A DNA stretch of 64,000 nt from Candidatus Magasanikiibacteriota bacterium (GTDB taxonomy: Bacteria > Patescibacteriota > Patescibacteriia > Magasanikbacterales > UBA922). The notes below the pieces were generated by a model that saw only the letters and a program-made list of their open reading frames with translations, searched no databases and was not told where the DNA came from. The translations under genes were made by a program, and so were the position numbers. Below, piece after piece: positions 4,309 through 61,757 of the stretch (positions within the stretch are counted from its first letter, which is position 1; the number at the start of each line of letters is the position of its first letter). The stretch is taken from assembly GCA_021648085.1 (NCBI GenBank), contig JAKITS010000001.1:682759-746758 (forward strand), written 5' to 3'.

Positions 4309-4360
4309 TATAAAAGCCCAAGTAGCAACCGCGAACGGGCTTTTTTTGTTATATTTTTTC

Positions 4361-12935: not shown

Positions 12936-12943
12936 ACAAAACA

Positions 12944-12973: not shown

Positions 12974-13029
12974 TTTAACCTTTTCACATAAACTCCCCGC
13001 TCAACCTAAAAAAGGTTAAGCGGGATTTT

Positions 13030-19766: not shown

Positions 19767-20324
19767 TTATTTCATTTTAGATTCAAAATATGAACGCGTG
19801 GTTAACCCACAAACATCCTGCTCTTTTGTATTAGCATCTGTTCCTCTTTCTTGGATTTCCCCATTAAAATCAAAAATATCTACAACACTTTTGAAACAAG
19901 TAGGATTTCCATACGGATTTGTGCCAACCTCTGTATCGCAGTTTGCAATTGGCTCAAAATAACTATTTTTATAATAACAAAAACCAACGATTACATCCCT
20001 ACAAACAAAATAACTACTGGAAATACTGTCTTCTCCACTGTGAGAAGGAAAATTTCCACAAACACTCAAATTAGTCTTATCACTAGTTCTCACATTTGTA
20101 TTTTCTGACATTAAAAATGATACCTTCTCGTTTAAATCATCCAATTGAATTTGTATCTGTTCTATATCAACTTCTGTGACAGCAGGTTTTTGAAAAATTA
20201 TCAAACTAAGCATTACTAACAAACTAACAAGAAAAGCTAGACCAACAGAAACTATAATAATCCAAACAGGCTCTCTTCCCTCGTTAATTTCATCTATATG
20301 TTTTTCATTTTCTAAAATCTTCAT
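19767..20324 (-). CDS. single-pass membrane protein with a Cys-rich extracytoplasmic domain
   Basis: N-terminal TM helix followed by 8 Cys in the C-terminal half. Confidence 0.45.
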   Translation of the reverse strand: MKILENEKHIDEINEGREPVWIIIVSVGLAFLVSLLVMLSLIIFQKPAVTEVDIEQIQIQLDDLNEKVSFLMSENTNVRTSDKTNLSVCGNFPSHSGEDSISSSYFVCRDVIVGFCYYKNSYFEPIANCDTEVGTNPYGNPTCFKSVVDIFDFNGEIQERGTDANTKEQDVCGLTTRSYFESKMK

Positions 20325-21326: not shown

Positions 21327-21394
21327 ATTTTTGAAAAAGTTCTAAATGTTCTATCACTTCACTTATTTTTTCTTTCATTTCGAATGAAACCTCT

Positions 21395-21550
21395 CACGTC
21401 ATCTTGAGCAGAACGAAGTGGAGTCGAAATATCTCGTAAACAATTCACTGTTTATATTTTTTAATTCTAGTCTTTTTAAACCAAGACCCATTCGACTTCC
21501 TGCCGGCAGGCTGGCATTTCGACTTACTCCATTTCGCTCAGGATGACGTG
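21395..21550. repeat. type-A inverted-repeat (MITE/REP-like) element
   Basis: Arms cacgtcatcttgagcagaacgaagtggagtcgaa ... ttcgctcaggatgacgtg. It also contains cctgccggcagg. It lies between miaA and miaB and abuts the miaB stop. Confidence 0.7.
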
Positions 21551-21561
21551 AATAACTAACA

Positions 21562-25267: not shown

Positions 25268-25774
25268 TCAAAATTCTCCCCTTCCTTCACAAATAAATGT
25301 AACCCTACTACCCTCATAAAACACAACTTCGAAATCAAAGTCTGTATTTTTAACATCGTACATAAAGAAAGATGTCCTATCTCCTGTTATATGTTCGGTT
25401 AGTTTTACGTCTCCTTCAAATCTATTACACCCCAACAAACTTGAAATAGAAATTTTTCTAAGAGAAAATCTCATTAAACTTTCGTTTAGTTTTGAAAAGT
25501 TATATTCTTTATTTTCAATATTAATACAAAGAGTTTTAACCTTTCTGTCAAACCTAATATAATCTATAACAATCATAATTTCCAATCTCCAATAGTTTGG
25601 AAATTTTAGAAGTTTTGCATTCAAATCTGGAGATTTAAATGCTGGAACAACACTATAAAATCTTCCAGACATTTTTCTATGATCTGAAATTTTCACAACA
25701 TTTTTATTCATCTTTTTCTCCTTTTTTAGTTTCATTTGTAAGGAACTTTTAGAACATTTAACTATATCAAACAT
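25268..25774 (-). CDS. hypothetical protein (start trimmed to the Met at MFDIVK)
   Basis: The ORF-track N-terminus runs into the promoter region of the + gene at 25861. No SD, hence low confidence. Confidence 0.3.
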   Translation of the reverse strand: MFDIVKCSKSSLQMKLKKEKKMNKNVVKISDHRKMSGRFYSVVPAFKSPDLNAKLLKFPNYWRLEIMIVIDYIRFDRKVKTLCINIENKEYNFSKLNESLMRFSLRKISISSLLGCNRFEGDVKLTEHITGDRTSFFMYDVKNTDFDFEVVFYEGSRVTFICEGRGEF

Positions 25775-25860
25775 TTCAGGTTTTGTCAAGTTTAAGACTA
25801 ATAAATTGACAAAAAAACCATATAACATATAATAAATAGGTAATTTTAAATAAAAAAAAT

Positions 25861-26304
25861 ATGGGAAACCCTGAATTAAGATCAATGAGTTTAGAAGAAG
25901 CAGAAAGAAAACTAAATACAGAAATTGCAGGCGAAGCAATTCAAAAACAAAGTGAACAAGAATTACTTAAAAAAATGGATTCTATAAATACAAACCCAGA
26001 TGCTTTAAAAAATAGACGAGAAAAAGCAATGCGAGAACTATTGGAAAAAAATGCTAAAGATCGAGAAAAACAAAAAAATATAGATAGAAATATTCAAAAA
26101 CAAAAAGAAAGAGAAGAAGGCACAGCAGTAGAACAAGCACTTTCTGAAACAAGAAAAGTAGTAAATGAATCTATCATTAGCGATAAAGAGCAAAAAATTA
26201 TAAAAGAATTAGAAAAGGTAAATCAAAGCACAGAAAAAGACATGCAAACCTTAGGAGATTTAGATAAAACAGGTATTTTTAAACCAGTCACAAAAAATAA
26301 ATAA
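25861..26304 (+). CDS. hypothetical Lys/Glu-rich coiled-coil protein
   Basis: TTGACAAAA promoter at 25806. Low-complexity charged sequence. Confidence 0.45.
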   Translation: MGNPELRSMSLEEAERKLNTEIAGEAIQKQSEQELLKKMDSINTNPDALKNRREKAMRELLEKNAKDREKQKNIDRNIQKQKEREEGTAVEQALSETRKVVNESIISDKEQKIIKELEKVNQSTEKDMQTLGDLDKTGIFKPVTKNK

Positions 26305-27514: not shown

Positions 27515-27564
27515 GACCCTTAATGTTTGTTGAATAACCTTACTTAGATTACAACAAAATAAAA

Positions 27565-27590
27565 AAACACTATTTAAATAGTGTTTTTTT
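27565..27590 (+). terminator. Rho-independent terminator
   Basis: aaacactatttaaatagtgttt followed by TTTTTT. Confidence 0.7.
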
Positions 27591-27616
27591 ATTTTTTATA
27601 CGCACCGTGTTTTTCT

Positions 27617-40929: not shown

Positions 40930-41074
40930 CACGTCATCCTGAGCGGAACGAAGTGGAGTCGAACGGATCCCAGTGCAATATCATCAGAACTATGAATATT
41001 TTATGTTCTGGTTATTCTGTTGCGAGATCCATTCGACTCCATTCCGTTTCACTCCATTTCGCTCAGGATAACGT
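40930..41074. repeat. type-A inverted-repeat (MITE/REP-like) element, near-complete copy
   Basis: Arms cacgtcatcctgagcggaacgaagtggagtcgaacggatccc ... cgaatggagtcgaatggatctcg...cgctcaggataacgt (~145 bp). Confidence 0.75.
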
Positions 41075-41093
41075 AAATTATAAATAAAAATAA

Positions 41094-41121
41094 AAACTCA
41101 CTTTAAAAAGTGAGTTTTTAT
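41094..41121. terminator. bidirectional terminator downstream of rpsA
   Basis: aaaaactcactttaaaaagtgagttttt. Confidence 0.65.
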
Positions 41122-41138
41122 TTTTAAGTTTTGTAGTT

Positions 41139-43931: not shown

Positions 43932-46463
43932 ATGCCAAAAAAACAAGAAGAGTTGAGCGTAAAACCACAAAACATAAAACCAATAGAATTGGTAAAAGAA
44001 ATGGAAACATCTTATTTGCAATATGCAATGAGTGTTATTGTCTCTCGTGCATTACCAGATGTTCGCGACGGATTAAAACCTGTTCACAGAAGGATTTTGT
44101 ACGCAATGTGGGGAATTGGACTAAAACATAATGCAAGATTTAGAAAATCTGCCCACGTAGTTGGAGAAGTGATGGCAAAATACCACCCTCACGGAGACTC
44201 CGCTATCTATGATTCTATGGTTCGTATGGCGCAAGACTTTAGTATGCGTTATCAATTGGTAAATGGACAAGGAAACTTTGGGTCATTAGATGGCGACTCT
44301 GCTGCTGCTATGCGTTATACCGAGGCAAAACTTCAAGCAATTGCAGAAGAGCTTCTTTTTGATATAGAAAAAGACACTGTAGATTTCAAAGCAACTTATG
44401 ACGGATCTCACAGAGAACCTCGTGTATTACCAGCCAAATTACCAAACCTTCTTTTGACAGGAAGTATGGGAATTGCAGTTGGAATGGCAACTAATATTCC
44501 ACCGCACAACCTTACCGAACTTTGTGATGGAATAACACATTTAATAGAAAACTCAAACGCAACAATAGAAGACTTAAATAAAATTATAAAAGGACCAGAC
44601 TTCCCTACCGGAGGTATTATTTACGATAAAAAAGATATTGCTGTAGCATACGCCACAGGAAAAGGTGGTGTTGTAATGCGTGCAAAAATAGACACAGAAG
44701 AAAAAAAACCAGGTTATCATCAAATTATTGTTAGAGAAATTCCATATCAAGTAAATAAATCTAGGTTAATAGAAAAAATTGCAAATCTTGTTCAAGAAAA
44801 GAAAATGACAGACATAAAAGACTTACGTGATGAATCTAACAAAGATGGAATTCGGATTGTAATTGAGTTGAAAAGAGATGCTTTTCCAAAAAAAGTTTTA
44901 AATAAATTATATAAACTTACAGATCTACAAACAAAATTCCATTTCAATATGCTTGCACTTGTAGATGGAATTCAACCAAGAATTTTGAACCTAAAAACAA
45001 TTTTAGAAGAACACATAAAACACAGACAAGTCGTGGTTGTTCGCAGAGCTGAATTTGAACTTGCAAAAGCAAGAGCCAGGGCTCATATTTTGGAAGGTTT
45101 GAAAAAAGCATTGGATAAAATAGACGAGGTAATAAAAATTATCAAAAAATCCAAAAACAAAGAGGAAGCTAAACAAAACTTGATGGCAAAATTTAAATTT
45201 AGTGAACTTCAAACTATTGCTATTTTGGATATGCGTTTGCAACAATTAGCAAACCTGGAACGCCAAAAAATTGAAAATGAGTTGAAAGAAAAAATGGTAA
45301 TTATCAAAAAATTGGAAGGAATTTTGAATAGTCCAAAAAAGATATTAGGCATTATTAAAACAGAAATTTCAGAAATAAAAGAAAAATTTGGTGATACAAG
45401 AAGAACAAAAATTGTAGCTCACGGCGTAAAAGAGTTCAGAATTGAAGACTTAATTCCAAACGAACCAACTCTTATTATCGCTACACGCGACGGATATATA
45501 AAAAGACTAGATCCGAACTCATTTAAAACTCAAGGTCGCGGAGGAAAAGGGGTCATTGGGTTAGCGACAAAAGAAGAAGATGTTGTAGAGCATTTAATTT
45601 CCACATACACTCACGACAGACTATTACTTTTTACCAGCAAAGGACAAGTTTTCCAACTTTATGCTCATGAAATTCCACAAACAACAAGAACCTCCAGAGG
45701 TAATGCTTTAGTAAATTTCTTACAACTATCCCCTCGCGACAAAGTCACATCAATCCTTTCAATGGATGATATAAATAAGTACAAATTCCTAATAATGACA
45801 ACAACGAAAGGAACTTCAAAAAAGACAAAAATTAAAGATTTTGAGACAGTGAGAAAATCTGGTTTAATTGCAATTAAATTGAAAGATGGCGACAGACTTG
45901 AGTGGGTTCGTCCATCTAGTGGAAAAGATGATGTTGCAATTGTCACCAAAAAAGGTCAAGCAATTCGATTTAAAGAAAAAGACCTAAGACCAATGGGTCG
46001 TGCTGCAGCTGGTGTTAGAGGAATAAGACTAAAAACAGATGACGAAGTTGTAGGAATGAATGTGGTCACACTAGAATCAATAGAACAGAGTGATGCACTT
46101 CTTTTGGTAGTTTCAGAGCTTGGTAGAGGAAAAAAGACAGCTCTCAAATATTACAAAGTTCAAAAAAGAGGTGGTAGTGGAATAAAAACAATGGCAATCA
46201 CTCAAAGAACCGGACAAATTGTAAAAGCCAAAGTTCTAAGAAAAAGTGCAAAAGACGATCTACTTATAATCACAGTAAAAGGACAAATAATTCGAATCCC
46301 TTTGAAAAGTGTCTCTACACTTGGACGCGCAACCCAAGGTGTAAGAATTATGAAATTCAAAGCGGTTGGAGACAAAGTAGTGAGTTTGGCGCTACTAGAA
46401 AAAGCAAATCCAAAAGAAAACCTTGCACTTCCACTTGTAAAAAAAGAAGGAACGAAGAAATGA
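43932..46463 (+). CDS. gyrA: DNA gyrase subunit A
   Basis: Active-site region [14 protein letters not shown]-like [11 protein letters not shown]-terminal beta-pinwheel repeats. Confidence 0.95.
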
Positions 46464-46560: not shown

Positions 46561-46623
46561 ATTTAGGGATATTTTATAATAATTACTACCGTACCGAGGC
46601 AAGTCTCACTGTATTACTATGAA

Positions 46624-46664
46624 TAAAACAAAAAACGCTATTTAAATAGCGTTTTTTGTTTTAT
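46624..46664. terminator. bidirectional terminator
   Basis: aacgctatttaaatagcgtt with A/T runs on both sides. Confidence 0.7.
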
Positions 46665-47124: not shown

Positions 47125-47703
47125 TTATCTACTTAAAAGTTTTAATGCTTCACGAAGTAATGCTTCGCTGTTTTTGTTTGGATCTTTAATTCGTTTCGCG
47201 GCAGCGCGCGCTTCTGCTTTGGAATACCCCATTGAAACAAGCCCATCTACCACATCAGCCAAAGCTCCATTATCAGCTTCCATTTCTCCAGCGTCTACCA
47301 ACTTCTCTATTTTACTTCTTAGCTCCACTATCATCCTCTCAGCCGTCTTCTTCCCTATTCCACTCACTTGCGTTAGATAACTTACATCTTTTCTAGCTAT
47401 TGCAGATGAAATTTCCTTTATACTTCCAAGTGTCAAAATATGCAAACCACTTTTTGGACCAACTCCAGACACAGATATTAAAAGTTCGAAAAAACCTTTT
47501 TGTTCTAAACTTTCAAATCCATACAAATCCAAAGCATTTTCTGCAACTTTCAAAAATGTGAATAATTCTACTTTATCCCCAATGTTTTTCTGCACCAAAA
47601 AAGTCGGCACAACTCTTATTTCATACCCAACCCCCTCTCCAGCCAATACCACAAAAGAAGTTTTAGTCTTCCCAATCAATTTTCCACTCAAAAATGCAAT
47701 CAT
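47125..47703 (-). CDS. ruvA: Holliday junction DNA helicase RuvA
   Basis: OB-fold N-terminus (MIAFLSGKL). Tandem HhH motifs (GVGPKSGL, GIGKKTAERM). C-terminal domain. Confidence 0.85.
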   Translation of the reverse strand: MIAFLSGKLIGKTKTSFVVLAGEGVGYEIRVVPTFLVQKNIGDKVELFTFLKVAENALDLYGFESLEQKGFFELLISVSGVGPKSGLHILTLGSIKEISSAIARKDVSYLTQVSGIGKKTAERMIVELRSKIEKLVDAGEMEADNGALADVVDGLVSMGYSKAEARAAAKRIKDPNKNSEALLREALKLLSR

Positions 47704-48119: not shown

Positions 48120-49457
48120 TTACAAATTCGCAGATTCATTAAATTTATTATAAAGACTTATATTTCTTTTTTGTAAAATTTTTCTAATTTCATCTGCCAA
48201 TATCTTTTTTTCTTCCTCATTTTCAACAAAATTATCTAACTCACTAGCTAAAAAATATCCTATTAAACTTTCGTCCGGTGGAAGCATTCTATTTGTAGTC
48301 AAATTTGCATAAAATTTATTTGCGATTAAATCGTCTACTTCACCAGATTTTATAGCTTCAAATAAACTTTGAACTGGTATCCTCATTTCATTATTAAACT
48401 TTTGTGTCATTTTTCTTTTTTCTAACATATCAAAATGACGACTTAGTTTTGTTCCTAAAATATTTTTTTTCTTTTTTTTTGTTCCAGCTTCAGACCGGTC
48501 TTCTGCAATATCTTGCCAAAATTCTACAAAACCAGTATCTCTATTAAATTCTCCTCCTTTTAAATTACTATAATAAGGGTCTGTTACTTTTTTATCATTA
48601 AGTCCCATACCAAAATCTATTACAAAAACATCTCCATTTTTATCCATCATTATGTTTCTTTCATGTAAATCACGGTGATAAATTCCATTTTCATTTAACA
48701 ATTTAATAGTGTTGGCAATTTTTGAAAAAAAATCTTCAGGCAAACGAAATTCAGAACCCTCCCCCTTTTTACCCTTACCAATTCCAAAAAAATCTACCAC
48801 TTTTGCTACATTTTCTCTATCCAACAATTCTTTTCCTCCCCCTGTTGTACCAGACTTTGAAAATTTTAGTGCAACTTGAACCTCATAAGCCAACTGTTTA
48901 AAAGATGTATTTTCTAATTTTAAATCTATAAGTTTTGGATGTCTTTTTGCAACCTCTTCAAATAAAATTGTGTTAAAATCCTTTCCATCAACCGCATCCA
49001 TAATAATAACATTTAGACTTCCCCCTTCTCTCGCTGGAACACCATAATTAGACAAAGTCTCTGCTAATTCTGCGTCTAAATCTTTTAAATTATAATTAAT
49101 ATGTGCTTGTGGAATTTTTGCATATTCCTCGACTTTATCCGGACTACTTTCAAAAATACTATTCAACACATCATACGCACTAGACATAACATTAAATTCA
49201 TTAGTTGCTTCCGTAACAGAGTCTATTTTAAATATTTTAGACACAAGTGACTGTCCTTCAAATTTTGGGTTAACATTTTTAATTTCTTCATCCAAAACTC
49301 CTCCCTCAACCCTCACAATTACACCGTTATTACCTTCATTTATTTTTACACCTTCTTTTAGAGCTTTAACCAATAATTCTCTAAAAATAGCCTCTTTTAC
49401 TTCTTTCGATTCTTTTTGTATTTGTAAAGCTCTTTCATTTCTATTATTTTCTGACAT
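48120..49457 (-). CDS. protein-kinase-like fold protein (HRD/DFG catalytic motifs)
   Basis: IYHRDLHERNIMMD and VIDFGMG resemble the kinase catalytic loop and DFG motif. No canonical Gly-rich loop. Confidence 0.5.
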   Translation of the reverse strand: MSENNRNERALQIQKESKEVKEAIFRELLVKALKEGVKINEGNNGVIVRVEGGVLDEEIKNVNPKFEGQSLVSKIFKIDSVTEATNEFNVMSSAYDVLNSIFESSPDKVEEYAKIPQAHINYNLKDLDAELAETLSNYGVPAREGGSLNVIIMDAVDGKDFNTILFEEVAKRHPKLIDLKLENTSFKQLAYEVQVALKFSKSGTTGGGKELLDRENVAKVVDFFGIGKGKKGEGSEFRLPEDFFSKIANTIKLLNENGIYHRDLHERNIMMDKNGDVFVIDFGMGLNDKKVTDPYYSNLKGGEFNRDTGFVEFWQDIAEDRSEAGTKKKKKNILGTKLSRHFDMLEKRKMTQKFNNEMRIPVQSLFEAIKSGEVDDLIANKFYANLTTNRMLPPDESLIGYFLASELDNFVENEEEKKILADEIRKILQKRNISLYNKFNESANL

Positions 49458-49590
49458 ATAAAATAAATTAACCTAATTTAAGCCAAAATACTTGACAAAA
49501 CACCCAAAATATGCTATAATTATAAGATTCCTTTCGGTATAGTTCCGTCTGGATGTCCTTTTTACAACATGCCCACAAAAGGAGGCAAGT

Positions 49591-50289
49591 GTGGGAGAAG
49601 TAAGGGTATGGCCCAAAATTTGTCATAGAAAAATTGGCGAGTTGACTTTGCACGAGCAAAGTCAACTCACTTTAATTGTAAAACAAAACTACCCAGATTG
49701 CAAAGAGCAAGCTGGGGATTTCGAGGAGGTATTGGAAGAAAAGCAAGGCGAAGTCACCTATTTGGAGACAAATAGTGAGATTGAAGCCTTTTTCTACACA
49801 GAAAACTTGGGCAAAGCTGGGGTTCAATTCCGATTCGTGAATGTCAAAAAAGACAGTCAGCGAAATGGACTCGGACAAAAGCTTATCGAGTTAATGGCTC
49901 AAAAAATTGAAACAACCCGCATTATAGGTTGCGTCGTCGTTGGCAATGCAATCGGCGAGCAGTATGTGGATGCTGGTTGTGTTATTAATGGTATCGAGGA
50001 GATTGAAGAAGGTGTTACGGTTTTTAACTTAGTTGGAAGCCGTGAAATGAACTCTTTATTTACCACAAAAATGTGGGGAATAAGGGAATTTGTAAAAACC
50101 TTTGATCGCCAAAAGAAGGAAGTGACAAGATTTTTACTGGAAGAAAATGAGCAAGTAATTGTTCGTGAATATTCCAGAAAAAAAGAAGCCATTCAGGAGA
50201 CAAGAGAACTCCTGAAAAGAGGCTATTTCGGAACTATCTACATAGTAGATAGCGAAGAAGAAATGATCATTTGCTTCGAAAAAATTTGA
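49591..50289 (+). CDS. GNAT-family N-acetyltransferase-like protein
   Basis: GTG start after the SD aaggagg. A TTGACAAAA/tataat promoter at 49493. Motif A-like RNGLGQKLIELM. GC is higher than the background. Confidence 0.5.
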   Translation: MGEVRVWPKICHRKIGELTLHEQSQLTLIVKQNYPDCKEQAGDFEEVLEEKQGEVTYLETNSEIEAFFYTENLGKAGVQFRFVNVKKDSQRNGLGQKLIELMAQKIETTRIIGCVVVGNAIGEQYVDAGCVINGIEEIEEGVTVFNLVGSREMNSLFTTKMWGIREFVKTFDRQKKEVTRFLLEENEQVIVREYSRKKEAIQETRELLKRGYFGTIYIVDSEEEMIICFEKI

Positions 50290-50310
50290 TTTCTTGCGTG
50301 TTTTTACCAG

Positions 50311-50344
50311 CCGTTCTCACACTTTAGTGAGAACGGCTTTTTTA
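50311..50344. terminator. bidirectional terminator
   Basis: ccgttctcacactttagtgagaacgg followed by TTTTTT. Confidence 0.7.
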
Positions 50345-51124
50345 TTTACTTGAATGCTCCCAAATAAAACCAAAAAGCTGCTTATAAAAAGTATAGACTT
50401 CCCTATCTTCTATTATAAAAGTGACCAATTTTCCCTCTCTTAAACTCAAAATGCCGACTTTATCTTCATAAATAAGCAAAAATAAGAATAAGTCTTTAAA
50501 CCTTTCTGGCAAAAATTTTACTTTTGTAAACTCTCCTGGTTTAATTTTTTTATAAGATTTCCTTGCAAAAGGTGTATCTACAGACAATAAATCCATTTTT
50601 ATACCCTGTTTTAGACGCACTTTTGTAAATTTATTCACCAATTCAGAAAAATTCTTGTCTAATACATCTTTATTTACAATACTTAAAATCTTCTTTCTGG
50701 GCTTCAAACTATCGTCCAAAGCCTCTTTTAACCCCTTTTTACCCTCAAAAAACCTAACATTTGGCTTATCTTGCCCCAAACGATACAAAGACTGCAAATC
50801 AAACAAATTACTATTTAATATCTTCTTTTTTGCCAACACCTCTGTTTCTTCTACTTTTAGCAAGTTTTTTAAATTGTCCGGTGGTAGTGAATTATATACA
50901 GTTTTCCCAGAATCTTTACTCTTTTTCAACAAACCTTTTTCATTTAATCCATCCAACACATAATAAAGCAGAGTTCTGGAAAGATCTATGTTTTTTTGTA
51001 AAATTTTTATATTAGTGTTTGCGTTTTTGAGCAAAAATTCATAAACCATCGCTTCGTTTTTACTGAGCCCCAAGCTAACCAATGTTTTTTGGGTTGTATT
51101 TACTTTTTTATTACTTTTTGACAT
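50342..51124 (-). CDS. TrmB-like winged-HTH transcriptional regulator
   Basis: N-terminal wHTH (KNEAMVYEFLLKNANTNIKILQKNIDLSRTLLYYVLDGLNEKGLL) plus a ~150-aa C-terminal effector-type domain. Confidence 0.6.
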   Translation of the reverse strand: MSKSNKKVNTTQKTLVSLGLSKNEAMVYEFLLKNANTNIKILQKNIDLSRTLLYYVLDGLNEKGLLKKSKDSGKTVYNSLPPDNLKNLLKVEETEVLAKKKILNSNLFDLQSLYRLGQDKPNVRFFEGKKGLKEALDDSLKPRKKILSIVNKDVLDKNFSELVNKFTKVRLKQGIKMDLLSVDTPFARKSYKKIKPGEFTKVKFLPERFKDLFLFLLIYEDKVGILSLREGKLVTFIIEDREVYTFYKQLFGFIWEHSSK

Positions 51125-51179
51125 ATTTTTTATTGTTTATAGTAGTATTATAAATAATAATACCATATTTTTCTTATTT

Positions 51180-51198
51180 TGTCAAATTTAGTTTGACA
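51180..51198. promoter_or_regulatory. perfect palindrome TGTCAAA-TTTAG-TTTGACA overlapping the -35 of the regulator promoter
   Basis: Two inverted TTGACA hexamers sit 56-74 nt upstream of the start of the TrmB-like gene. Confidence 0.5.
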
Positions 51199-51780
51199 TT
51201 TTTTACTATCACAAATACTTATTTTGTCTACAAAGACTTGACAAAGTTTTATTTTTATGATATTGTTGCTCTTGTTCATAACGCAAAAGCTTGTCAAGTC
51301 GCAGCGGATCTAAGTCATTTAAGCATCCGTACATGTTTGACTTACACACAAGTAAACACGCTTTGAACATTTCAAAAAATGTTTGCAAGGATTTTATCCA
51401 AAACAAACATCAAATGTCATATTGGTGATACTTGCCCTTTTTGGGCAGTATCGTTTCAAACACCTATTGAGCTGGAGAACTTAATAAGTGTTTGAAACGA
51501 TGCTATTCAAAAAAACACCTCCCCAATTACTAATTAAACAAAAAATATGGTTTTCCCAGCAGAACTTATCTCATTATTTTAAACAAAAGAAGATAGTATA
51601 AACCTTTCTCCACTTAATTGAATCCTTGAGTTATTCAAGGATTCAACAGAGTCTAGTTTTAAACATTAGTCAAAAACAATTTTCCGCTTAATTTGTGTAA
51701 GAAATATACAAATTAAACTGGAAATGGTTTCCAAAAAGGTGTCCCTCCCTTTGAGTGATAATAAAAAAAAGGAGGTTTAA

Positions 51781-52017
51781 ATGACCAACTTAGCTCAAGC
51801 TTTTGCAGCGGCTGGCATCGTAGATGCAGAGTCAGCCCAAAAAGCTGAGCGGGCAGTGGAACGTCGCGCCGCCGTAAACACACTTTGTGTTCGGGTGAGC
51901 AAGGCTTTCCAACTCGCCAAATCGCTTCCTTCGGGAAGTGACGCCGCGAATCGGGAGTGGAAGCATTATTATACGCTACGCAACCGCCTGCCCTACCATC
52001 TCCGACAAGCCTACTAG
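51781..52017 (+). CDS. small protein (78 aa) encoded in a ~56% GC segment; could instead be, or also be, a structured RNA
   Basis: A perfect SD aaaaaaggagg lies 6 nt before the ATG. I counted 67/120 G+C in the first 120 nt. The segment contains a cuuccUUCGggaag hairpin and other stems. Confidence 0.4.
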   Translation: MTNLAQAFAAAGIVDAESAQKAERAVERRAAVNTLCVRVSKAFQLAKSLPSGSDAANREWKHYYTLRNRLPYHLRQAY

Positions 52018-52414
52018 GCAAAAAGGATATGGTTAATCGGACTCCCGCCGAGCCGATGAAAAATAAACGGGAACAAATCTTCTTGTCTAATAGAGGACAG
52101 AACAAGAAGTTGAAGTAATTTAATAGTAAAACTTCCTAAAAAGTACTATCCAGCCCATCGCCTGCTGTAAATGGTGAAAAATGTGGGAGTAAATTGCTAA
52201 AAACAATTTACTCCCTACCTTAACTAAATATTTAAATATATTTTGAATAATTAGTTAGGGTCTTTAAAAAAATATTACAAATCCTGGATTCAATTGAGTT
52301 TTTAAATAAGTTAAAAGTTTAATTGAGTTCCTTTTACAGTTTTTTTCACAAGAGGCCTCGTATGAGCGATTACGGAGGTAAAATCACCGCGTACCCACAA
52401 ATAGGAGAGAAATC

Positions 52415-53038
52415 ATGAAGACAGCGTACTCCTTTGATTCTACTATTAAAATTCCAGATTTTCTAAAAAACCCAGCTTTTTATCTGGGAAATGAATGGCT
52501 CTTATCTTTAAACAAGTCGAAGTTTACTAAAAAACAGTGGAAAAATAATGGAAACCTACTGTATGTTTTAAAAGCAGTAGGACTACTTTTACTTATTTGT
52601 AAAAGTAGAAAGGTGGAAAAGCTAGCAAAAAAATGGCTAGAACCAGAAGAAGAGATTGAAATAAAAGCTTTGATAGATTTTTTAAGATTTGCTCTAATTA
52701 TAGAGTCAGATCCTGCGGTAGCACCAAGCTTAATGTATATAAATACATTAAGCCCTGTATTAGAAGCGCAAATAGAGGTCTCCGCTATTGACAAAATTTT
52801 AGAAATACTTGATGCAAAGAATAAACATAGTTTTCCTGTTGGAGATATTGAATGGTGTATTTTTGGGCTTGATCAGTTGCGAATAGCTCAAAAAGGTAGA
52901 CACCCCACCCAAGATGATATTGATTTTGATTTCAAAATAATGAATCAATCTCAATTTAAGCGGACAATTTCCGCTATTTTCCCAGAGTATGAAAAGGCTT
53001 TGGAGGAATTCTTGGTAACACAAACGGCTTTTGTCTGA
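52415..53038 (+). CDS. hypothetical protein
   Basis: SD aggagag upstream. A possible coupled 17-codon upstream ORF ends in an ATGA overlap. Confidence 0.5.
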   Translation: MKTAYSFDSTIKIPDFLKNPAFYLGNEWLLSLNKSKFTKKQWKNNGNLLYVLKAVGLLLLICKSRKVEKLAKKWLEPEEEIEIKALIDFLRFALIIESDPAVAPSLMYINTLSPVLEAQIEVSAIDKILEILDAKNKHSFPVGDIEWCIFGLDQLRIAQKGRHPTQDDIDFDFKIMNQSQFKRTISAIFPEYEKALEEFLVTQTAFV

Positions 53039-53166
53039 TAATTAATCAGACACAAAGTCATTCCCCAGACTTTTACATTTTTTGTAAGTAAAAGTCTGGG
53101 TCTCACTTTTACACTTTTATAAAATAAGAGTAGAAAAGTGAGACTCATCACAAAAAAGGAGATAAA

Positions 53167-53307
53167 ATGAGTAAAAAAAAGAAAAAAAGAAAACTCAAAA
53201 CTGTACCACGAAATTTCTTTGTTGTTCAAATGCGAACAGAAAGAAAAAATGGTGCTCACAAAAACAAAAACACTTGTCGTGGAAAATACAGAAGCAACTC
53301 TTATTAA
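53167..53307 (+). CDS. small, highly basic 46-aa protein (not in the ORF track)
   Basis: SD aaaaaggag lies 7 nt before the ATG. Translates to MSKKKKKRKLKTVPRNFFVVQMRTERKNGAHKNKNTCRGKYRSNSY. A terminator hairpin gcaactct...agagttgc follows. Confidence 0.4.
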   Translation: MSKKKKKRKLKTVPRNFFVVQMRTERKNGAHKNKNTCRGKYRSNSY

Positions 53308-53603
53308 TTAGAGTTGCTTTTTATTTTTTTAAGTCCAAACCCTTGACAAATAACTATTTTTATGGTTTAATTAAGCCTGCTTTAGTGTGGTGCTGGAGCA
53401 GTTCGATCCTTACAAGGAGTAAATGGTAAATGAATTCAAAAATCTGTGTTGTACAACTCACACCTCCCAACAACCAAAAACCAGCAGCTAAAGGTAAAAA
53501 TACCAGAAGCTGTTGGAAACACGCTAACCAAAGGCGTGAAAGAAGAGAGGTGAAAGTGCAACTCAAAAATACCAATCTTAAAGATTGGTAAAAAGGAGAA
53601 ATA

Positions 53604-53957
53604 ATGAAGATTCTTGTAGATAATAAACCTGGTTCTTCAAAACTGGAGATAGATAGTGAAAATGATGCTCTTTTAGCCTCCATTTCTCTTGATATTACCG
53701 AAGGTATTATCAATAGTCTAAGCTCTTGGACAATTATAGAAATTAATGGGAAAGATTTTTGTGTAATTTCAATGATACGAGCAGATTTTTTTATGTTTAA
53801 TTCCAATTTGTCAATAATTCCACTAAATAAAGAAATGATTTTTTATTTTATTACTGAGTGCCAAACGGCACTCAGTGAAATAAAGGAAGGCTCAAAAGAG
53901 GAATCTTTTTGGGCAGCCAAAATTGTAAAGCTAGACAAAATTTTGTCTCATTACTAA
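53604..53957 (+). CDS. hypothetical protein
   Basis: SD aaaaaggag upstream. A terminator at 53965-53995. Confidence 0.45.
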   Translation: MKILVDNKPGSSKLEIDSENDALLASISLDITEGIINSLSSWTIIEINGKDFCVISMIRADFFMFNSNLSIIPLNKEMIFYFITECQTALSEIKEGSKEESFWAAKIVKLDKILSHY

Positions 53958-53964
53958 AACCCAA

Positions 53965-53995
53965 ATCCCCGCACAAATGTGCGGGGATTTTTTTA
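53965..53995 (+). terminator. Rho-independent terminator
   Basis: atccccgcacaaatgtgcggggat followed by TTTTTTT. Confidence 0.75.
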
Positions 53996-54074
53996 TTGGC
54001 ACTAATTATATTATAGGGTTTTCTATTTAATTACAAAACAACCTTAATTCTTAACCTCGGAGAGGTCTTTCTTC

Positions 54075-54236
54075 CACGTCATCTTGAGCGACAGTCGAAA
54101 GATCCCCGTGCAATATCACAAAATATAAATAATTATAATAAAACATAAGTCAGTTTTTTCTTTTGTTCTTTGTTAGTTCTGGTGATTCTATTTCGAGATC
54201 CGTTCGACTTCACTTCGTTCCGCTCAGGATGACGTG
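54075..54236. repeat. type-A inverted-repeat element flanked by a perfect 28-bp direct repeat (54043-54070 and 54303-54330)
   Basis: Arms cacgtcatcttgagcgacagtcgaaagatcccc ... gatccgttcgacttcacttcgttccgctcaggatgacgtg. The direct repeat is cttaattcttaacctcggagaggtcttt. Confidence 0.75.
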
Positions 54237-54336
54237 AGAGAATAGAATTAAGAAATAAGATAGAAAGAAAATTTCCTACTTAAATACGAAGTAGTCTTAG
54301 TACTTAATTCTTAACCTCGGAGAGGTCTTTTTCTGA

Positions 54337-57300
54337 TTAATCTACTTTCCTCACTCCAAGTTCTATTTCAACATCACCAATTTTTACACTTTTTTCTCCG
54401 CCGTCCTGCAAAATTTCATCTGCTAAAACACCCTTTTTAATATCTTCTGCAAATTTTTCAAACACGCTTTGAAGTAGAAAATCTTCTGTATGATAAGTTA
54501 TCACAACTCTGTCTTCTCTAGTTAAACCTTGTTCTTTGCGAAGTTGGTTCACCGTTCTTACAATTTCACGCATCAAACCTTCTTTTTTCAATTCTTCTGT
54601 TATTTCTGTGTTGAGTGCAACTAATGTTCTTTGACTTTCAATAACAAAATATTTTTTGTCTTTTTTAACTCTATTTATGTCAGGACATCCCATTTTTAAG
54701 AATTTAACTTCTTTAACATTTAACTCATTTTTAATTAAAGTTTCATATTTTTTCTTTTCTTCATTATCATCATAAATAGGCGGTCCAAAAAAACAAACTT
54801 CTGACAAAGGTTGCCTAACTTTAATTCCAGCACTTGATCTAGCAGATTGACCTAACTCAATAATATCTCTTGTGGATCTCATATTTTCTAATGGTAGAAA
54901 ATCAATATCACCTTCCAGAACTTCTGGCCAATCTTCTAAATGCACACTTTCTGCAGTTCCTTCACCTTTTATTTGCAAGTAAATTTTGTCTGCAATAAAC
55001 GGCATAAATGGCGCCATCACTTTTGATAAAGTTAACAAAACATAACCCAAAGTTTTTTCTGCTTGTTTTTTGTCTTTTTCCAAATCACCTTCAGTAGAAT
55101 TCATTTTAAATCTATCACGACTTCTACGAATATACCATTGAGATAAATCTGCAATAAAATCTTGGATTGGACGAATTGCTTCAGCAAGTTTATACTCCTC
55201 CATATTTTTGGTGACATCTACTACCAATCTGTTCAGTTTTGCTACAATCCACTTATCCAAAACATTTTCCAATTCTACTGTATTTATTTTGCTCACAGCT
55301 TTTTCCTCTGCAAACATTTCATAAAAACTAAACACATTCCAAAGCATATTTATCACTTTTCCATAAACTTCACGCACACCTTTTTCAGAAAAACTCATAT
55401 TTTCTGCATGTACAACAGGCGAAGAAAGTAGATAATATCGCAGAGCATCTGAACCATATTTTTCCAAAACCAACATTGGATCTGGATAATTTTGTAGACG
55501 CTTACTCATCTTTTTTCCGTCTTCTGCCAAAATAATTCCGTTTACAATTACATTTCTAAAAGCTGGCAAAGATTCATCTGTTGGAATAGTAGGATTTTCT
55601 CCGCGAGTAAGTGCCGTCGCCAAAACATGTAAAGTATAAAACCAACCACGAGTCTGGTCTTGACCTTCTGCAATAAATTCTGCTGGAAAACCTGCTTCAA
55701 ATTTTTCTTTGTTTTCAAACGGATAGTGCATCTGGCCATAAGGCATAGCACCAGATTCAAACCAACAATCTAAAACCTCTGAAACTCTGTGATATGTTTT
55801 TCCATCTTTTTCAAAAACCAATTTGTCCACGGTATCTTTGTGCAAATCTTCTACTTTTTGCCCAGACAACTCCTCTAATTCTTCAACACTTCCTACACAA
55901 ATAAAATCTTCACCATCATCACTTCTCCAAATAGGAAGTGGCGCACCCCAAAAACGATTTCTAGAAACAGCCCAATCTCTTACATTTTCCAACCACTTTC
56001 CAAAACGCCCTTGTTTTATATGGCTTGGTACCCAGTTTGTCTTTTCATTATTTAATAGTAAATCTTCTTTAAGTTCTGTGACGCGAATAAACCAACTGCT
56101 TGTTAAATAGTTTAAAAGTGGCGTATCACAACGCCAACAATGTGGATAGCTGTGCAAATATTTTTCTTTTGCAAACAATTTTCCATTTTTTGCAAGCCAT
56201 TTTATAATTTCTACATCAGTCTTAGAATGATCTGCTTTTGGTTTTACTTCTTGCCCGACAAAATCTAGCACTTCTGGTTTAAATTTTCCATCCATTCCTA
56301 CATGTTGCACAAAATCAATCTCCTCTTTTTCTCCCAAACTATAGTCATCAGAACCAAAAGCTGGTGCAATATGTACAATTCCAGTTCCATTTTCTGTCGT
56401 CACAAAATCAGCTTCCACAACTTTAAATGCATTTTTTGTATCTTTATAATAAGGAAATAATGGCTCATAATTTAAACCAACCAATTTTGAACCTGTAAAT
56501 TCTGCCACAATTTCGTAAGCTCCTTTTGTCACATAATCAGCTCTCTCTTTTGCAACCAAAAATGTCTCTTTATTTTTTTCACCATTTTCATTTATTGTAC
56601 GAATTTGCAAATAATCTATATCATTTCCAACAGCAATTAGCACATTTCCCGGTAATGTCCACGGGGTTGTAGTCCAAGCCAAAATATATAAATCTTCCTC
56701 AACTCCCAACTTTTCTTTTGCATTCAAAACTTTAAACTGTGCTGTCACAGTTAAATCTTTTATATCTTTATAACCTTGTGTCACCTCAAAATTTGAAAGT
56801 GGGGTCTCACAACGCGGACAAATATGCATTGGCTTCCTACCCTCATAAATCAAATTCTTATCCCAAAGCTGTCTAAAAACCCACCAAACGCTTTCCATAT
56901 AATTTATATCCATAGTTCGGTAGGAATTTTCCATATCCACCCAACGACCAAATCTATGAATTATTCTTTTCCACTCGTCTACATAATTTGAAACATTAGA
57001 CCTGCAAGCATCGTTAAAATTATGTATGCCAAAATCTTCAATATCTTTTTTTGTTTTCAAATCTAAAGCCTTTTCTACAATATTTTCAATTGGCAAACCA
57101 TGACAATCCCAACCCCATTTTCTCTCTACACGAAAACCACGCATAGTCCAAAAACGCGGAATTGTATCCTTCATTGCAGTTCCAACTATATGCCCATAAT
57201 GTGGCAAACCTGTCGCAAACGGAGGTCCGTCATAAAAAACATATGGTTTATCTTTTGGTCTACTTTCTACTGATTTTTCAAAACACTTATGCTGATCCCA

Positions 57301-57342
57301 ATATTTTAAAATTTCTTTCTCATTTTTATCTGCTTCGTACAT
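54337..57342 (-). CDS. ileS: isoleucyl-tRNA synthetase
   Basis: HIGH motif (PHYGHIVG). KMSKS (KMSKRLQN). CP1 editing domain. About 1000 aa. Confidence 0.95.
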   Translation of the reverse strand: MYEADKNEKEILKYWDQHKCFEKSVESRPKDKPYVFYDGPPFATGLPHYGHIVGTAMKDTIPRFWTMRGFRVERKWGWDCHGLPIENIVEKALDLKTKKDIEDFGIHNFNDACRSNVSNYVDEWKRIIHRFGRWVDMENSYRTMDINYMESVWWVFRQLWDKNLIYEGRKPMHICPRCETPLSNFEVTQGYKDIKDLTVTAQFKVLNAKEKLGVEEDLYILAWTTTPWTLPGNVLIAVGNDIDYLQIRTINENGEKNKETFLVAKERADYVTKGAYEIVAEFTGSKLVGLNYEPLFPYYKDTKNAFKVVEADFVTTENGTGIVHIAPAFGSDDYSLGEKEEIDFVQHVGMDGKFKPEVLDFVGQEVKPKADHSKTDVEIIKWLAKNGKLFAKEKYLHSYPHCWRCDTPLLNYLTSSWFIRVTELKEDLLLNNEKTNWVPSHIKQGRFGKWLENVRDWAVSRNRFWGAPLPIWRSDDGEDFICVGSVEELEELSGQKVEDLHKDTVDKLVFEKDGKTYHRVSEVLDCWFESGAMPYGQMHYPFENKEKFEAGFPAEFIAEGQDQTRGWFYTLHVLATALTRGENPTIPTDESLPAFRNVIVNGIILAEDGKKMSKRLQNYPDPMLVLEKYGSDALRYYLLSSPVVHAENMSFSEKGVREVYGKVINMLWNVFSFYEMFAEEKAVSKINTVELENVLDKWIVAKLNRLVVDVTKNMEEYKLAEAIRPIQDFIADLSQWYIRRSRDRFKMNSTEGDLEKDKKQAEKTLGYVLLTLSKVMAPFMPFIADKIYLQIKGEGTAESVHLEDWPEVLEGDIDFLPLENMRSTRDIIELGQSARSSAGIKVRQPLSEVCFFGPPIYDDNEEKKKYETLIKNELNVKEVKFLKMGCPDINRVKKDKKYFVIESQRTLVALNTEITEELKKEGLMREIVRTVNQLRKEQGLTREDRVVITYHTEDFLLQSVFEKFAEDIKKGVLADEILQDGGEKSVKIGDVEIELGVRKVD

Positions 57343-60030: not shown

Positions 60031-60141
60031 AGCGGAACAAAGTGAAGTCGAAATATCTCGTGTCTATTTCATAAGAATTTTATATATTTATAATTCTATG
60101 AAATTTAATCGAGATCCTTCGACTTCGCTCAGGATGATGTG
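60031..60141. repeat. type-A inverted-repeat element (left arm truncated)
   Basis: agcggaacaaagtgaagtcgaaatatctcg ... cgagatccttcgacttcgctcaggatgatgtg. Confidence 0.7.
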
Positions 60142-61225: not shown

Positions 61226-61402
61226 ATGAATGGTAAACAAGATGTTTGCAAAGGTCACAATACAGAACAATACCCTGCCATTATGAGCTGGTGTGAAAAA
61301 TGTGGGCAATTAAAAGCAAGTAAAACATTTTTAACCTGCAAAAAATGCGCAAAAAAAAATAGTAGATGTCATATTTGTGGCAAAAAAAAAAGGAGTAACT
61401 AG
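61226..61402 (+). CDS. Cys-rich mini-protein 1 (58 aa, zinc-ribbon-like; not in the ORF track)
   Basis: SD aaaaggag 6 nt upstream. CEKCG, CKKC and CHICG motifs. Confidence 0.45.
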   Translation: MNGKQDVCKGHNTEQYPAIMSWCEKCGQLKASKTFLTCKKCAKKNSRCHICGKKKRSN

Positions 61403-61569
61403 TGAATGAAGAAGTTTGTGATTGCCCCAAAAAACAAACATCATGTGTTTTTAGAATCTGCATTGACTGTAAAGCTCTTTTTTTAACATTATCTTCTAAA
61501 TTATGTTTACCCTGTTCCAACAAAAAAAGAACCTGCGTTTATTGTGGTAACCAAAAAAAGAAAACTTAA
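61402..61569 (+). CDS. Cys-rich mini-protein 2 (55 aa), paralogue of mini-protein 1
   Basis: GTG start overlapping the previous stop, with the SD aaaggag. CDC, CIDC, CLPC and CVYCG motifs. A terminator at 61570-61600. Confidence 0.4.
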   Translation: MNEEVCDCPKKQTSCVFRICIDCKALFLTLSSKLCLPCSNKKRTCVYCGNQKKKT

Positions 61570-61680
61570 AAGATCGAAGTAAATTCGATCTTTTTTTAAT
61601 CCCCGAACATTTAACTACCTAAAAATAAATTAAATTTTAATTTTAATTTTTGGATGAATGTTTGAGTGAAATTAAGATAA

Positions 61681-61709
61681 GATCCTTCGACTTCGCTGAG
61701 GATGACGTG
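61681..61709. repeat. solo right arm of a type-A element
   Basis: gatccttcgacttcgctgaggatgacgtg. Confidence 0.6.
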
Positions 61710-61757
61710 GAAACGATCCTCAAATATGCTATAATATAATAAATTAATTATAAAAAA

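Follow-up and report, generated by a model that had tools for sequence, protein, structure and literature searches.

A hairpin-rich, lineage-specific islet of orphan genes between ruvA and ileS in a Candidatus Magasanikiibacteriota genome

The DNA analysed here is a stretch of 64,000 nucleotides (called the window) from contig JAKITS010000001.1 of a Candidatus Magasanikiibacteriota bacterium, with a GC content of about 32% (32.1%). Its interval 51130-54335 (called the island) was described in the initial annotation as a palindrome-dense segment of atypical composition next to a TrmB-like regulator. The island occupies the right half of an islet of ~6.6 kb (47.7-54.3 kb), accessory and lineage-specific, which lies between the core genes ruvA and ileS. 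The lineage-specific block is wider than the interval originally flagged, and its structural anomaly begins at 49.5 kb. The islet is of an ordinary type, made up of orphan genes in a candidate phyla radiation (CPR) genome, and has one unexplained peculiarity, namely a codon-independent hairpin potential in neighbouring orphan genes. We hold with moderate confidence that this lineage-specific islet consists of short, strongly signalled transcription units on the + strand, and that its palindromes are mostly transcript punctuation acting at the RNA level.

The genes and features of the locus are collected in Table 1. Between ruvA and ileS lie u93, a protein kinase gene, the GNAT-like gene gnat232, the gene of the TrmB-like regulator and, within the island, the + strand open reading frames (ORFs) o78, o207, o46, o53 and o117, followed by a miniature inverted-repeat transposable element (MITE). 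The strong Shine-Dalgarno (SD) sequences reported for the small genes are present: AAGGAG or AGGAG precedes the ATG by 5-10 nt in o78, o207, o46, o53 and o117. AAGGAG occurs at 44 sites on the two strands of the window, 21 of which are ahead of an ORF of at least 40 aa. The NCBI annotation of 51125-52414 is empty, containing neither protein nor RNA. No tRNA or tmRNA was found in the window by ARAGORN, and Rfam 15 at gathering scores gave zero matches across its whole length. At permissive E-values, Rfam searches of 50900-54500, 51250-52420 and 49450-50400 gave chance-level matches only.

Table 1. Coordinates (window numbering) of the genes, predicted signals and hairpins at the ruvA-ileS locus.
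Feature	Position	Strand	Description
gyrA	43932-46463		
u134	between gyrA and ruvA		
ruvA	47125-47703		core gene
u93	between ruvA and the kinase gene		
Protein kinase gene (kinase445)	48120-49457	-	
gnat232 unit	49492-50338	+	
gnat232 promoter	49492-49520	+	TTGACA-17-TATAAT
gnat232 coding sequence (L3J07_03780)	49591-50289	+	GNAT-like, GTG start, AAGGAGG SD
Hairpin in gnat232	49639-49668	+	13-bp perfect stem, encodes ELTLHEQSQL
gnat232 terminator	50309-50338	+	T-tract follows
TrmB-like regulator gene (TrmB260, L3J07_03785)	50342-51124	-	260 aa; N-terminal TrmB helix-turn-helix; C-terminal ~170 aa without family match
Regulator promoter	51185-51180 (-35), 51162-51157 (-10)	-	TTGACA, 17 nt, TATTAT, TG before -10; consensus scan
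Regulator control region	51157-51198		contains palindrome 1
Palindrome 1	51180-51198		7-5-7, -35 hexamer plus inverted copy
Promoter P1	51238-51266	+	TTGACA, 17 nt, TATTGT, extended -10 TG; 10/12 consensus matches
Untranslated leader	51268-51780	+	~510 nt, six stem-loops, fold z = -6.4
Leader stem-loops	51289-51353, 51379-51410, 51434-51446, 51447-51504, 51612-51652, 51674-51730		
Palindrome 2	51450-51463/51488-51501		14-bp perfect stem; small G+C hairpin adjoins at 51434-51446
Palindrome 3	51618-51646		12-bp stem
Further perfect stem	51688-51716		at least 9 bp
o78	51781-52017	+	78 codons, Ala/Arg-rich, 55% GC, AAGGAGG SD 6 nt before ATG
Palindrome 4 (stem-loop after o78)	52185-52215		12-bp perfect stem GGGAGTAAATTG-N7-CAATTTACTCCC, -16.9 kcal/mol, z = -6.65
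Upstream ORF (uORF)	52362-52418	+	18 codons (MSDYGGKITAYPQIGEKS), AAGAGG SD; stop overlaps o207 start (ATGA)
o207 (L3J07_03790)	52415-53038	+	all-helical orphan protein
Further perfect stems in o207	52583-52608, 52728-52753		at least 9 bp, inside coding sequence
Palindrome 5 (twin hairpins)	53064-53144 (53064-53100 and 53100-53144)		abutting 13-bp and 11-bp stems between o207 stop and o46 SD
o46	53167-53307	+	46 codons, very basic, AAGGAG SD 5 nt before ATG; stop in terminator loop
Terminator (perfect stem 53292-53319)	53290-53321	+	canonical intrinsic: 12-bp stem, 8-nt loop, then TATTTTTTT
Promoter P2 (predicted)	53343-53371	+	TTGACA, 17 nt, TTTAAT, TG at extended -10; homologous to P1
o53	53430-53591	+	53 codons, basic, AAGGAG SD 10 nt before ATG
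Palindrome 6	53570-53590		10 bp, overlaps last o53 codons, ends 4 nt before o117 SD
o117 (L3J07_03795)	53604-53957	+	orphan
Further perfect stem in o117	53853-53876		at least 9 bp; the one perfect hairpin in this coding sequence
Terminator (further perfect stem)	53963-53990		strong intrinsic, 13-bp G+C-rich stem, + strand T-tract, -21.3 kcal/mol
MITE-like insertion	54043-54330		core ~54075-54238, terminal inverted repeats CACGTCATCYTGAGCG, then 64 nt
28-bp direct repeat	54043-54070, 54303-54330		perfect, brackets the MITE
MITE family copies	21392-21552, 40930-41075, 54075-54238		full copies
MITE family, partial	~60040-60140, 61680-61710		
ileS	54337-57342		core gene
Two hypothetical genes, then rpiB, rpe, trxB	right of ileS		

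Perfect hairpins were defined by a stem of at least 9 bp and a loop of at most 25 nt. The island contains 12 of them, as compared to 0.88 ± 0.99 in 200 dinucleotide shuffles (maximum 4), and 5 stems of at least 12 bp, with 0.03 expected from such shuffles. Folded singly, the hairpins have z from -2.7 to -9.0. Across the remaining nineteen 3.2-kb bins, the number of perfect hairpins per bin ranges from 0 to 7 (mean ~2.6). All six palindromes named in the initial annotation exist, with coordinates right to 1-2 nt. The first (TGTCAAA-TTTAG-TTTGACA) and the third had been placed exactly, the second was given 2 nt short per side, and the fourth was off by one. The stem of palindrome 2 widens to 34-nt arms which are 82% complementary, and the hairpin said to adjoin it corresponds to the small G+C hairpin. 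A search for tandem or CRISPR-like arrays found only trivial low-score repeats.

The meaning of this density becomes different once the non-coding DNA is taken into account. The non-coding share is ~70% in the island vs 18% in the whole window (according to a simple codon-score gene call), and the number of perfect hairpins per non-coding kb is 4.03 in the island vs 3.75 in the rest of the window (Poisson P = 0.46). The description as palindrome-dense is thus correct as an excess over shuffled sequence and does not hold as a peculiarity relative to other intergenic DNA. The apparent density results mainly from the ~70% of the island that is non-coding, since such hairpins are common in the intergenic DNA of this genome. 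What needs explanation is why the stretch has so little recognisable coding sequence. Several hairpins elsewhere in the window, together with the A- and T-tracts on their two sides, form perfect palindromes of 19-21 bp. Longer perfect palindromes (38-42 bp, arms 0-2 nt apart) are found at 27556-27595, 46623-46664, 41085-41126 and 12938-12976; that at 41085-41126 is a hairpin between complementary A- and T-tracts, i.e. a bidirectional terminator. Long perfect palindromes therefore appear to be normal intergenic punctuation in this genome.

The intergenic hairpins are located exactly at ORF ends or directly ahead of the next SD. An intrinsic terminator was taken as a G+C-containing stem of at least 5 bp with a loop of 3-8 nt and a T-tract after it on the transcribed strand. 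This arrangement is found at 53290-53321 and 53963-53990, as well as at 50309-50338 outside the island, and is not found at 51450-51501, 51618-51646, 51688-51716, 52185-52215, 53064-53100 and 53100-53144. The three hairpins of the former group, that of gnat232 included, would be canonical intrinsic terminators. The consensus scan detected 10 terminator-like sites vs 2.0 ± 1.6 expected, and called 53963-53990 on the - strand too. Elsewhere in the window a T-tract is present in 26 of 48 perfect hairpins, and these are mostly terminators.

The flagged part would comprise at least two + strand transcription units, possibly three. The first would start at P1 (51238) and run through the 510-nt hairpin-rich leader and o78 to the stem-loop 52185-52215. 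The second would consist of the 18-codon uORF coupled to o207, the twin hairpins, o46 and the terminator 53290-53321. The third would start at P2 (53343) and lead through o53, a hairpin and o117 to the terminator 53963-53990. The leader and intercistronic hairpins lacking a T-tract may serve as 3' or 5' barriers to exonucleases, or as processing or pause sites which tune the relative levels of the small products. The sequence features with their statistics and the absence of homologues are demonstrated, whereas we infer from the sequence where transcription would start and stop, that o78, o46 and o53 would be translated, and what the hairpins would do.

P1 lies within 41 nt that have 73% identity with the surroundings of P2 (repeat D1). 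The gnat232 promoter (49492) too is of consensus type with an extended -10. P2 was missed by the consensus promoter scan (position 2 of its -10 element is T) and is predicted from this repeat. The leader stem-loop 51447-51504 has 17 bp and, counted with its neighbour, -38.6 kcal/mol. None of the six leader stem-loops is followed by a T-tract, the SD scan revealed no credible SD for any leader ORF, and the leader matches no Rfam family, permissive thresholds included. Of the two possible leader peptides proposed for the island, one is plausible, namely the uORF. The stem-loop after o78 has no T-tract on the + strand and probably marks the 3' end of the P1 transcript or forms a stability barrier for it.

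The GC-richest 200 nt of the 64 kb lie within o78 (51801-52000, 56.5%; the next patch, outside, reaches 46%), in agreement with the 56%-GC segment pointed out initially. The atypical composition ascribed to the island is confined to this 300-bp o78 patch, without which the GC content of the island is 32.0% vs 32.1% for the window. The GC content at third codon positions (GC3) is 0.53 in o78 (native mean 0.22), 0.39 in gnat232 and 0.33 in o53, all outside the native range of 0.11-0.30. The proposed check of GC content and codon usage thus singles out o78, gnat232 and o53 as deviant, while o207, o46, o117 and the GC content of the remaining island are native-like. The codon-position pattern of o78 (G at first positions, G1 = 0.37; GC1 0.65 > GC3 0.53 > GC2 0.48) appears in its own frame only, and an antisense ORF of 130 codons does not have this periodicity. 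Owing to this restriction to its frame, o78 is probably a genuine gene, although its composition and codon usage are foreign. Homologues of o78 were found neither by protein word-index search nor in Pfam or among PDB sequences, and none were found in metagenome and viral contigs by degenerate-pattern scans, which are sensitive to close relatives only.

The stop codon of the uORF overlaps the ATG of o207, which suggests that the two are translationally coupled. The frame-specific coding scores of o207 (0.21) and o117 (0.215) are at the low end as compared to the native range of 0.24-0.69, and the AlphaFold2 (AF2) single-sequence models of the two proteins are poor (pLDDT 45 and 59, respectively). 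The twin hairpins behind o207 (-37.8 kcal/mol, z = -9.0) have no T-tract. They are tandem duplicates (repeats D4 and D7), and a third copy of their stem core, ACTTTTAC/GTAAAAGT, is located in o207 at 52585-52606. Probably they act as an intercistronic barrier or a 5' stabiliser. The products of o46 and o53 are very basic, and the coding scores of the two ORFs are ambiguous. A paralogous relation between them was rejected (mutual BLASTP E = 2.0), and so was an assignment to ArfA-like small basic proteins (no Pfam match at E <= 1). Searches of PDB sequences with o78, o46 and o53 gave nothing meaningful. Elsewhere in the window, two tandem small Cys-rich ORFs (61226-61402 and 61403-61570; 58 and 55 codons) have several CxxC pairs and are zinc-ribbon-like; AAGGAG is ahead of each and a terminator follows.

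The secondary structure potential is not limited to intergenic DNA. The most structured sequence of the window is gnat232, which lies outside the flagged interval: its minimum free energy over 826 nt is -276.7 kcal/mol vs -201.8 kcal/mol in shuffles (z = -10.0 on the + and -10.8 on the - strand), and with DNA energy parameters z is -8.4. Permutation of synonymous codons gives z of -8.3/-10.0 for gnat232, -5.9/-4.7 for o207, -6.5 for o53, -3.4/-4.6 for o117, -3.2 for o46 and -2.6 for o78. For the regulator, the kinase, ruvA, ileS, rpe and rpiB the same z lies between -0.6 and +0.3 (regulator 0.0 and 0.2). When codons are permuted within 40-codon blocks (~12% of bases changed), z is -5.6 for gnat232, -3.65 for o207, -3.56 for o117 and ~0 for the controls. 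The median synonymous-permutation z of 63 ORFs is -0.68, and only three others fall below -3, all of them hypothetical and without Pfam match. Neither protein sequence nor codon usage accounts for the intragenic excess.

The same contrast is seen on the level of whole transcripts and in sliding windows. The fold z is -4.7 for the o207 mRNA vs -0.42 for the regulator mRNA. In a scan with 200-nt windows and dinucleotide shuffles, z is near 0 over ruvA, the kinase, the regulator and ileS, and it is below -3 in 11 of 24 windows of 49.5-54.0 kb. In the rest of the 64 kb, windows with z below -4 are isolated and mostly coincide with a terminator hairpin or a MITE. The ileS-ruvA gaps of 12 relatives fold ordinarily (mean z from -0.1 to -1.2). 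The excess pairs are local (median span 23-29 nt vs 42-54 nt in shuffles), mostly Watson-Crick and poorer in G-U than in shuffles, and the excess is about equal on both strands. The signal is therefore an inverted symmetry at the DNA level, which fits selection on RNA, selection on single-stranded DNA and a mutational origin alike.

Structured sequence of this type was also observed at other places in the window. The gene-poor stretch 3723-4617 (895 nt) contains a TTGACAAA promoter at 3937, an AAGGAG SD at 3991 and a hypothetical ORF of 101 codons (4003-4308, L3J07_03555). Its folding is strand-specific (4201-4400: z = -8.0 on the + vs -0.7 on the - strand), the synonymous-permutation z of the locus is -4.25, and Rfam was not matched. 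Either a structured RNA or a further orphan gene of the structured type may be located there. The hypothetical ORFs 19767-20324 (-) and 25268-25939 (-), which have no Pfam match, show synonymous-permutation z of -3.7 and -3.5. The latter probably has an internal start, behind a TTGACAAA promoter (25789) and an AAGGAG SD (25723).

For comparison with relatives, a scan for isoleucyl-tRNA synthetase (IleRS), with one genome per species, gave 80 loci, all from Magasanikbacteria or other Patescibacteria. The IleRS of one locus (L001) is 83% identical and those of the remainder at most 66%. Many of the 80 loci have gyrA, ruvA, rpiB and rpe close to ileS, with synteny in up to 55 of them; in 55, ruvA follows downstream of ileS, 7 bp to 9.3 kb away. 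No homologue of any of the nine ORFs in the ruvA-ileS gap of the window was found in the 80 loci, except for distant TrmB-family paralogues located elsewhere. This presence/absence pattern, with syntenic flanking genes and gap ORFs lacking homologues, bears out the view that the module is accessory rather than core. The gaps of the relatives have a changing set of genes, some of housekeeping type (by eye, the ORFs resemble NIF3, ATP-grasp, PepA and peptidase U32), and none of these is found in the gap of the window. A strict integration hot spot was rejected on account of these genes, from which it follows that ordinary loss of synteny between distant relatives explains the variation at least in part. 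The contig of L001 stops 64 nt behind ileS, directly beyond a terminator (6171-6235), so that the counterpart of the island is absent from that assembly; a repeat or variable region after ileS may have broken it.

Proteins o207 and o117 matched only themselves among 5.8 billion protein clusters, and o207 matched only itself in an exhaustive phmmer search of 1.84 billion representatives. No relative of gnat232 was found in the 80 loci or in metagenome contigs, the latter by a pattern scan that finds close relatives only. A contig look-up for the o207 and regulator proteins returned no record. Proteins o78, o207, o46, o53 and o117 have no significant match in Pfam, PHROG, NCBIfam or the PADLOC defence models; the best PHROG E-values of the island ORFs are 0.03-0.15, with inconsistent functions. 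Pseudogene remnants in the 1.29-kb gene-less stretch were sought by tblastx and blastn against the 80 loci and the rest of the window, and only the MITE was matched. A blastn search against 50,697 phage and 72,556 plasmid records gave zero matches. The suggestion of a phage or plasmid remnant is accordingly not upheld, as neither hallmark genes (Pfam, PHROG) nor DNA similarity to phages or plasmids was detected. No integrase, Rep or tRNA gene is near the island and no attachment-site repeats were found, the sole flanking repeat being the 28-bp one at the MITE. An integron cassette array was rejected as well: the hairpins are 21-52 nt long with perfect stems and no common core, the units have their own promoters, and there is no integrase (attC sites were judged by inspection, against imperfect palindromes of 57-141 nt with R''/R' cores, RYYYAAC...GTTRRRY). 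The kinase gene (48120-49457, -) is likewise lineage-specific, with no homologue in the 80 loci; only a catalytic loop of ~45 residues matches Pkinase, Bud32/RIO-type and the PADLOC PD-T4-6 and MADS6 models.

The neighbouring regulator does possess the TrmB-type helix-turn-helix ascribed to it (PF01978, residues 17-82, 43.4 bits vs a gathering cut-off of 25.6, E = 3.2e-11). A C-terminal effector (sugar)-binding domain gave no Pfam match, and the NCBIfam TrmBL1 model scored 16.8 bits, with a cut-off of 650. The perfect palindrome 51180-51198 overlies the -35 element of the regulator gene; most likely it would serve either as the regulator's own operator or as two -35 elements placed back to back in divergent promoters. 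Since the + strand half of the palindrome has no good -10 element, a second promoter is no likelier than an operator. The motif TTGACAAA, with 20 sites of which several are back to back at divergent promoters, is what this genome generally has as extended -35, and a twin of the palindrome with 1 mismatch is located at 11310-11328. The pattern TGTCAAA-N5-TTTGACA with at most 3 mismatches matches the window 14 times vs 14.25 expected. A TrmB-like homologue in a related locus (L054, 27% identical) has TGTCAA-N8-TTGACA on its own -35. There, at ~3380-3400 of L054 and upstream of that gene, the palindrome ATGTCAAG-AGCGTA-CTTGACAT overlaps the -35 of a TTGACA-17-TATAAT promoter, as palindrome 1 does in the window. 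The palindromes of the island are unrelated in sequence, so that the idea of a shared TrmB operator is not supported and 51180-51198 is the single credible one.

At the right edge, the MITE and its 28-bp repeat are as initially described. The element is short, non-coding, has terminal inverted repeats and occurs in multiple dispersed copies, at least three full ones in the window. The 28-bp repeat includes a small hairpin just past the ileS stop codon and sits 4 nt and 64 nt from the terminal inverted repeats; it is far longer than usual target-site duplications, and none of these is obvious at the other full copies. The family is ~150-175 bp long, has terminal inverted repeats CACGTCATCYTGAGCGGAACGAAGTGGAGTCGAA and is always intergenic. 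The 13-mer GTCATCCTGAGCG occurs once each in the related loci L018, L031 and L038.

Transcript punctuation covers nearly every intergenic hairpin position, except for the leader stack and the intragenic excess. For these two, template-switch mutation would rank first, followed by selection for RNA stability in highly expressed cassettes and then by passage through a single-stranded replicon. Several observations weigh against the punctuation reading. At 49.4-54.3 kb, 10 of 14 perfect hairpins have no T-tract vs 22 of 48 elsewhere; most hairpins of this zone are therefore not canonical terminators, and the role assigned to them is one that we infer. The six stem-loops in one untranslated leader are left unexplained. 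Inside coding sequences, the 3 hairpins in o207 and o117 amount to 3.07 per kb vs 0.29 per kb in other genes, and the folding excess outlasts synonymous-codon permutation, of which transcript punctuation gives no account. The ORFs o78, o46 and o53 are absent from the NCBI annotation and their codon scores are weak. Finally, the relatives are distant in terms of IleRS identity, L001 excepted, and accessory therefore means lineage-specific, not demonstrably recently acquired.

Another source of the hairpins, those inside genes included, could be short-range template switching during replication. By quasipalindrome correction and expansion it would generate them as functionless by-products, which persist in young, weakly constrained DNA and are purged from core genes. 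Template switching is documented both as a source and as a perfecter of inverted repeats and RNA hairpins (PMC5941160, PMC8794818). The local Watson-Crick pairing, strand-equal and with few G-U pairs, points to such a DNA-level origin, and many of the stems are perfect. Of three hairpins within 550 nt which share the core ACTTTTAC/GTAAAAGT, two are tandem duplicates. The affected genes are all orphans, and the three other ORFs with z below -3 are hypothetical ones without Pfam match. However, other lineage-specific genes (kinase445, u93 and TrmB260 of the same islet, as well as the nearby d212, d92 and u134) have z from -1.2 to +0.2, and the ileS-ruvA gaps of the 12 relatives fold ordinarily. 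The ORFs are still open and frame-specific, despite the many such events that would have occurred. Moreover, the excess follows those + strand units that possess consensus promoters and SDs, an association indicative of RNA-level selection. Template switching is in our opinion an unlikely, albeit serious, explanation of the hairpins.

Selection may be invoked in a bolder form. The co-oriented orphan genes of 49.6-54.0 kb could be a unit selected for extreme local secondary structure, either as the cargo of an unrecognised single-stranded CPR mobile element or as hairpin-string mRNAs for post-transcriptional control or RNA protection. We consider this quite unlikely. If true, bacteria would in either case have an equivalent of the coding palindromes and the genome-scale ordered structure that are otherwise familiar from organelles and viruses.

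The + strand genes of 49.6-54.0 kb may derive from an integrated single-stranded DNA element, such as a rolling-circle plasmid, a filamentous phage or microphage, or a conjugative leading region. The hairpins would then protect or organise the single strand, and those of the leader would be remnants of origins or single-strand promoters. The structure is indeed pervasive in coding and non-coding DNA (the 11 of 24 windows with z below -3 compare with 0-14% in the relatives' intervals), the signal holds with DNA energy parameters (z = -8.4 and -7.6), and GC3 is foreign in o78 and gnat232. Nevertheless, no Rep/HUH, integrase, morphogenesis, capsid or relaxase gene was found. PHROG gave no match at E < 0.01, and phage and plasmid collections and viral contigs gave none. 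There are neither attachment-site repeats nor a tRNA, the - strand regulator gene breaks up the block, and o207, o46 and o117 are native in composition. Such an element is very unlikely.

The 940 nt from P1 to the stem-loop 52185-52215 might be one large structured non-coding RNA, in which o78 would be a chance ORF in GC-rich sequence. The fold z values (-6.4 for the leader and -5.4 for 51770-52220), a C(UUCG)G tetraloop hairpin on the + strand and the empty NCBI annotation are consistent with this, as is the presence of the GC-richest patch in an AT-rich genome, which is usual for structured RNAs. The antisense ORF of 130 codons shows, in addition, that long ORFs occur here by chance. On the other hand, given its composition, the GC patch has no more than moderate structure (z from about -2.5 to -2.9), and no Rfam family was matched even at permissive thresholds. 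Known large non-coding RNAs have irregular helices, from which the long, perfect and AT-rich hairpins of the leader differ. A consensus AAGGAGG precedes the o78 ATG by 6 nt, and the G1/GC1 periodicity is limited to the o78 frame. We consider such an RNA highly improbable.

That the palindromes are an operator array, through which the adjacent TrmB-like regulator would control the whole island from many sites, is scarcely credible: the regulator gene is divergent from P1, its -35 is covered by a perfect 7-5-7 palindrome and a distant homologue has an analogous upstream palindrome (L054), but there is no common half-site (stems TGTCAAA, ATCGTTTCAAACAC, TTGAATCCTTGA, GGGAGTAAATTG, CCCAGACTTTTAC and TACCAATCTT), the promoter palindrome pattern occurs at chance frequency, dimer operators do not typically have stems of 12-17 bp and loops of 5-24 nt, and the majority of the palindromes are at ORF ends.

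Single-stranded viral genomes possess genome-scale ordered secondary structure. The present locus is similar to them in that its folding energy is far below that of permuted controls across the coding regions of adjacent genes. It differs from them in being chromosomal double-stranded DNA with a strand-equal signal and no viral hallmark gene. For hairpins within translated sequence, the nearest described phenomenon is that of the mitochondrial genes of Nematomorpha, which have coding palindromes with perfect stems of up to 284 bp (PMC6649704). Perfect inverted repeats are present in coding sequence here too, with both arms translated (for instance 49639-49668), so that a strict secondary structure is combined with protein coding. 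Unlike in Nematomorpha, the perfect stems are 10-13 bp long, the excess is formed mostly by many imperfect local hairpins, and the genes are bacterial chromosomal orphans.

With respect to intrinsic terminators and stabilising stem-loops, the likeness lies in the location at exact ORF ends and in the three cases with a G+C stem and a T-tract. The differences are the 10 of 14 hairpins without T-tract, the six stacked in the leader and the several in coding sequence. The regulator resembles TrmB-family proteins with palindromic operators in its N-terminal PF01978 domain and in the perfect palindrome over its own promoter, whereas the C-terminal sugar-binding domain of the characterised proteins is undetected here and the operator is a predicted one. 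Strain-specific orphan-gene islets are matched by the homologue-less block between conserved core genes, the partly deviant composition (o78, gnat232), the regulator and the MITE at the edge. Orphan genes are known to be enriched in islands (PMC1285063). Unlike such islets, the present one has no integrase, tRNA, attachment repeats or mobility genes and mostly native GC content, and it is unusually coding-poor (~30-45%) and unusually rich in stem-loops, even inside genes.

The island itself is ordinary in having no recognisable function, mobility gene or defence system, CPR genomes being full of lineage-specific hypothetical genes. The absence of o78, o46, o53 and the 18-codon uORF from public annotation indicates that small genes are under-called in these genomes. 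The intragenic excess is large, withstands three types of control and is limited to a single group of adjacent orphan genes. In the case of a mutational origin, the locus would be a clean natural case of template-switch hairpins accumulating in young genes and possibly feeding gene birth. If it is selected, it would mean an unknown RNA-level or single-strand-level constraint on the accessory genes of an ultra-small bacterium.

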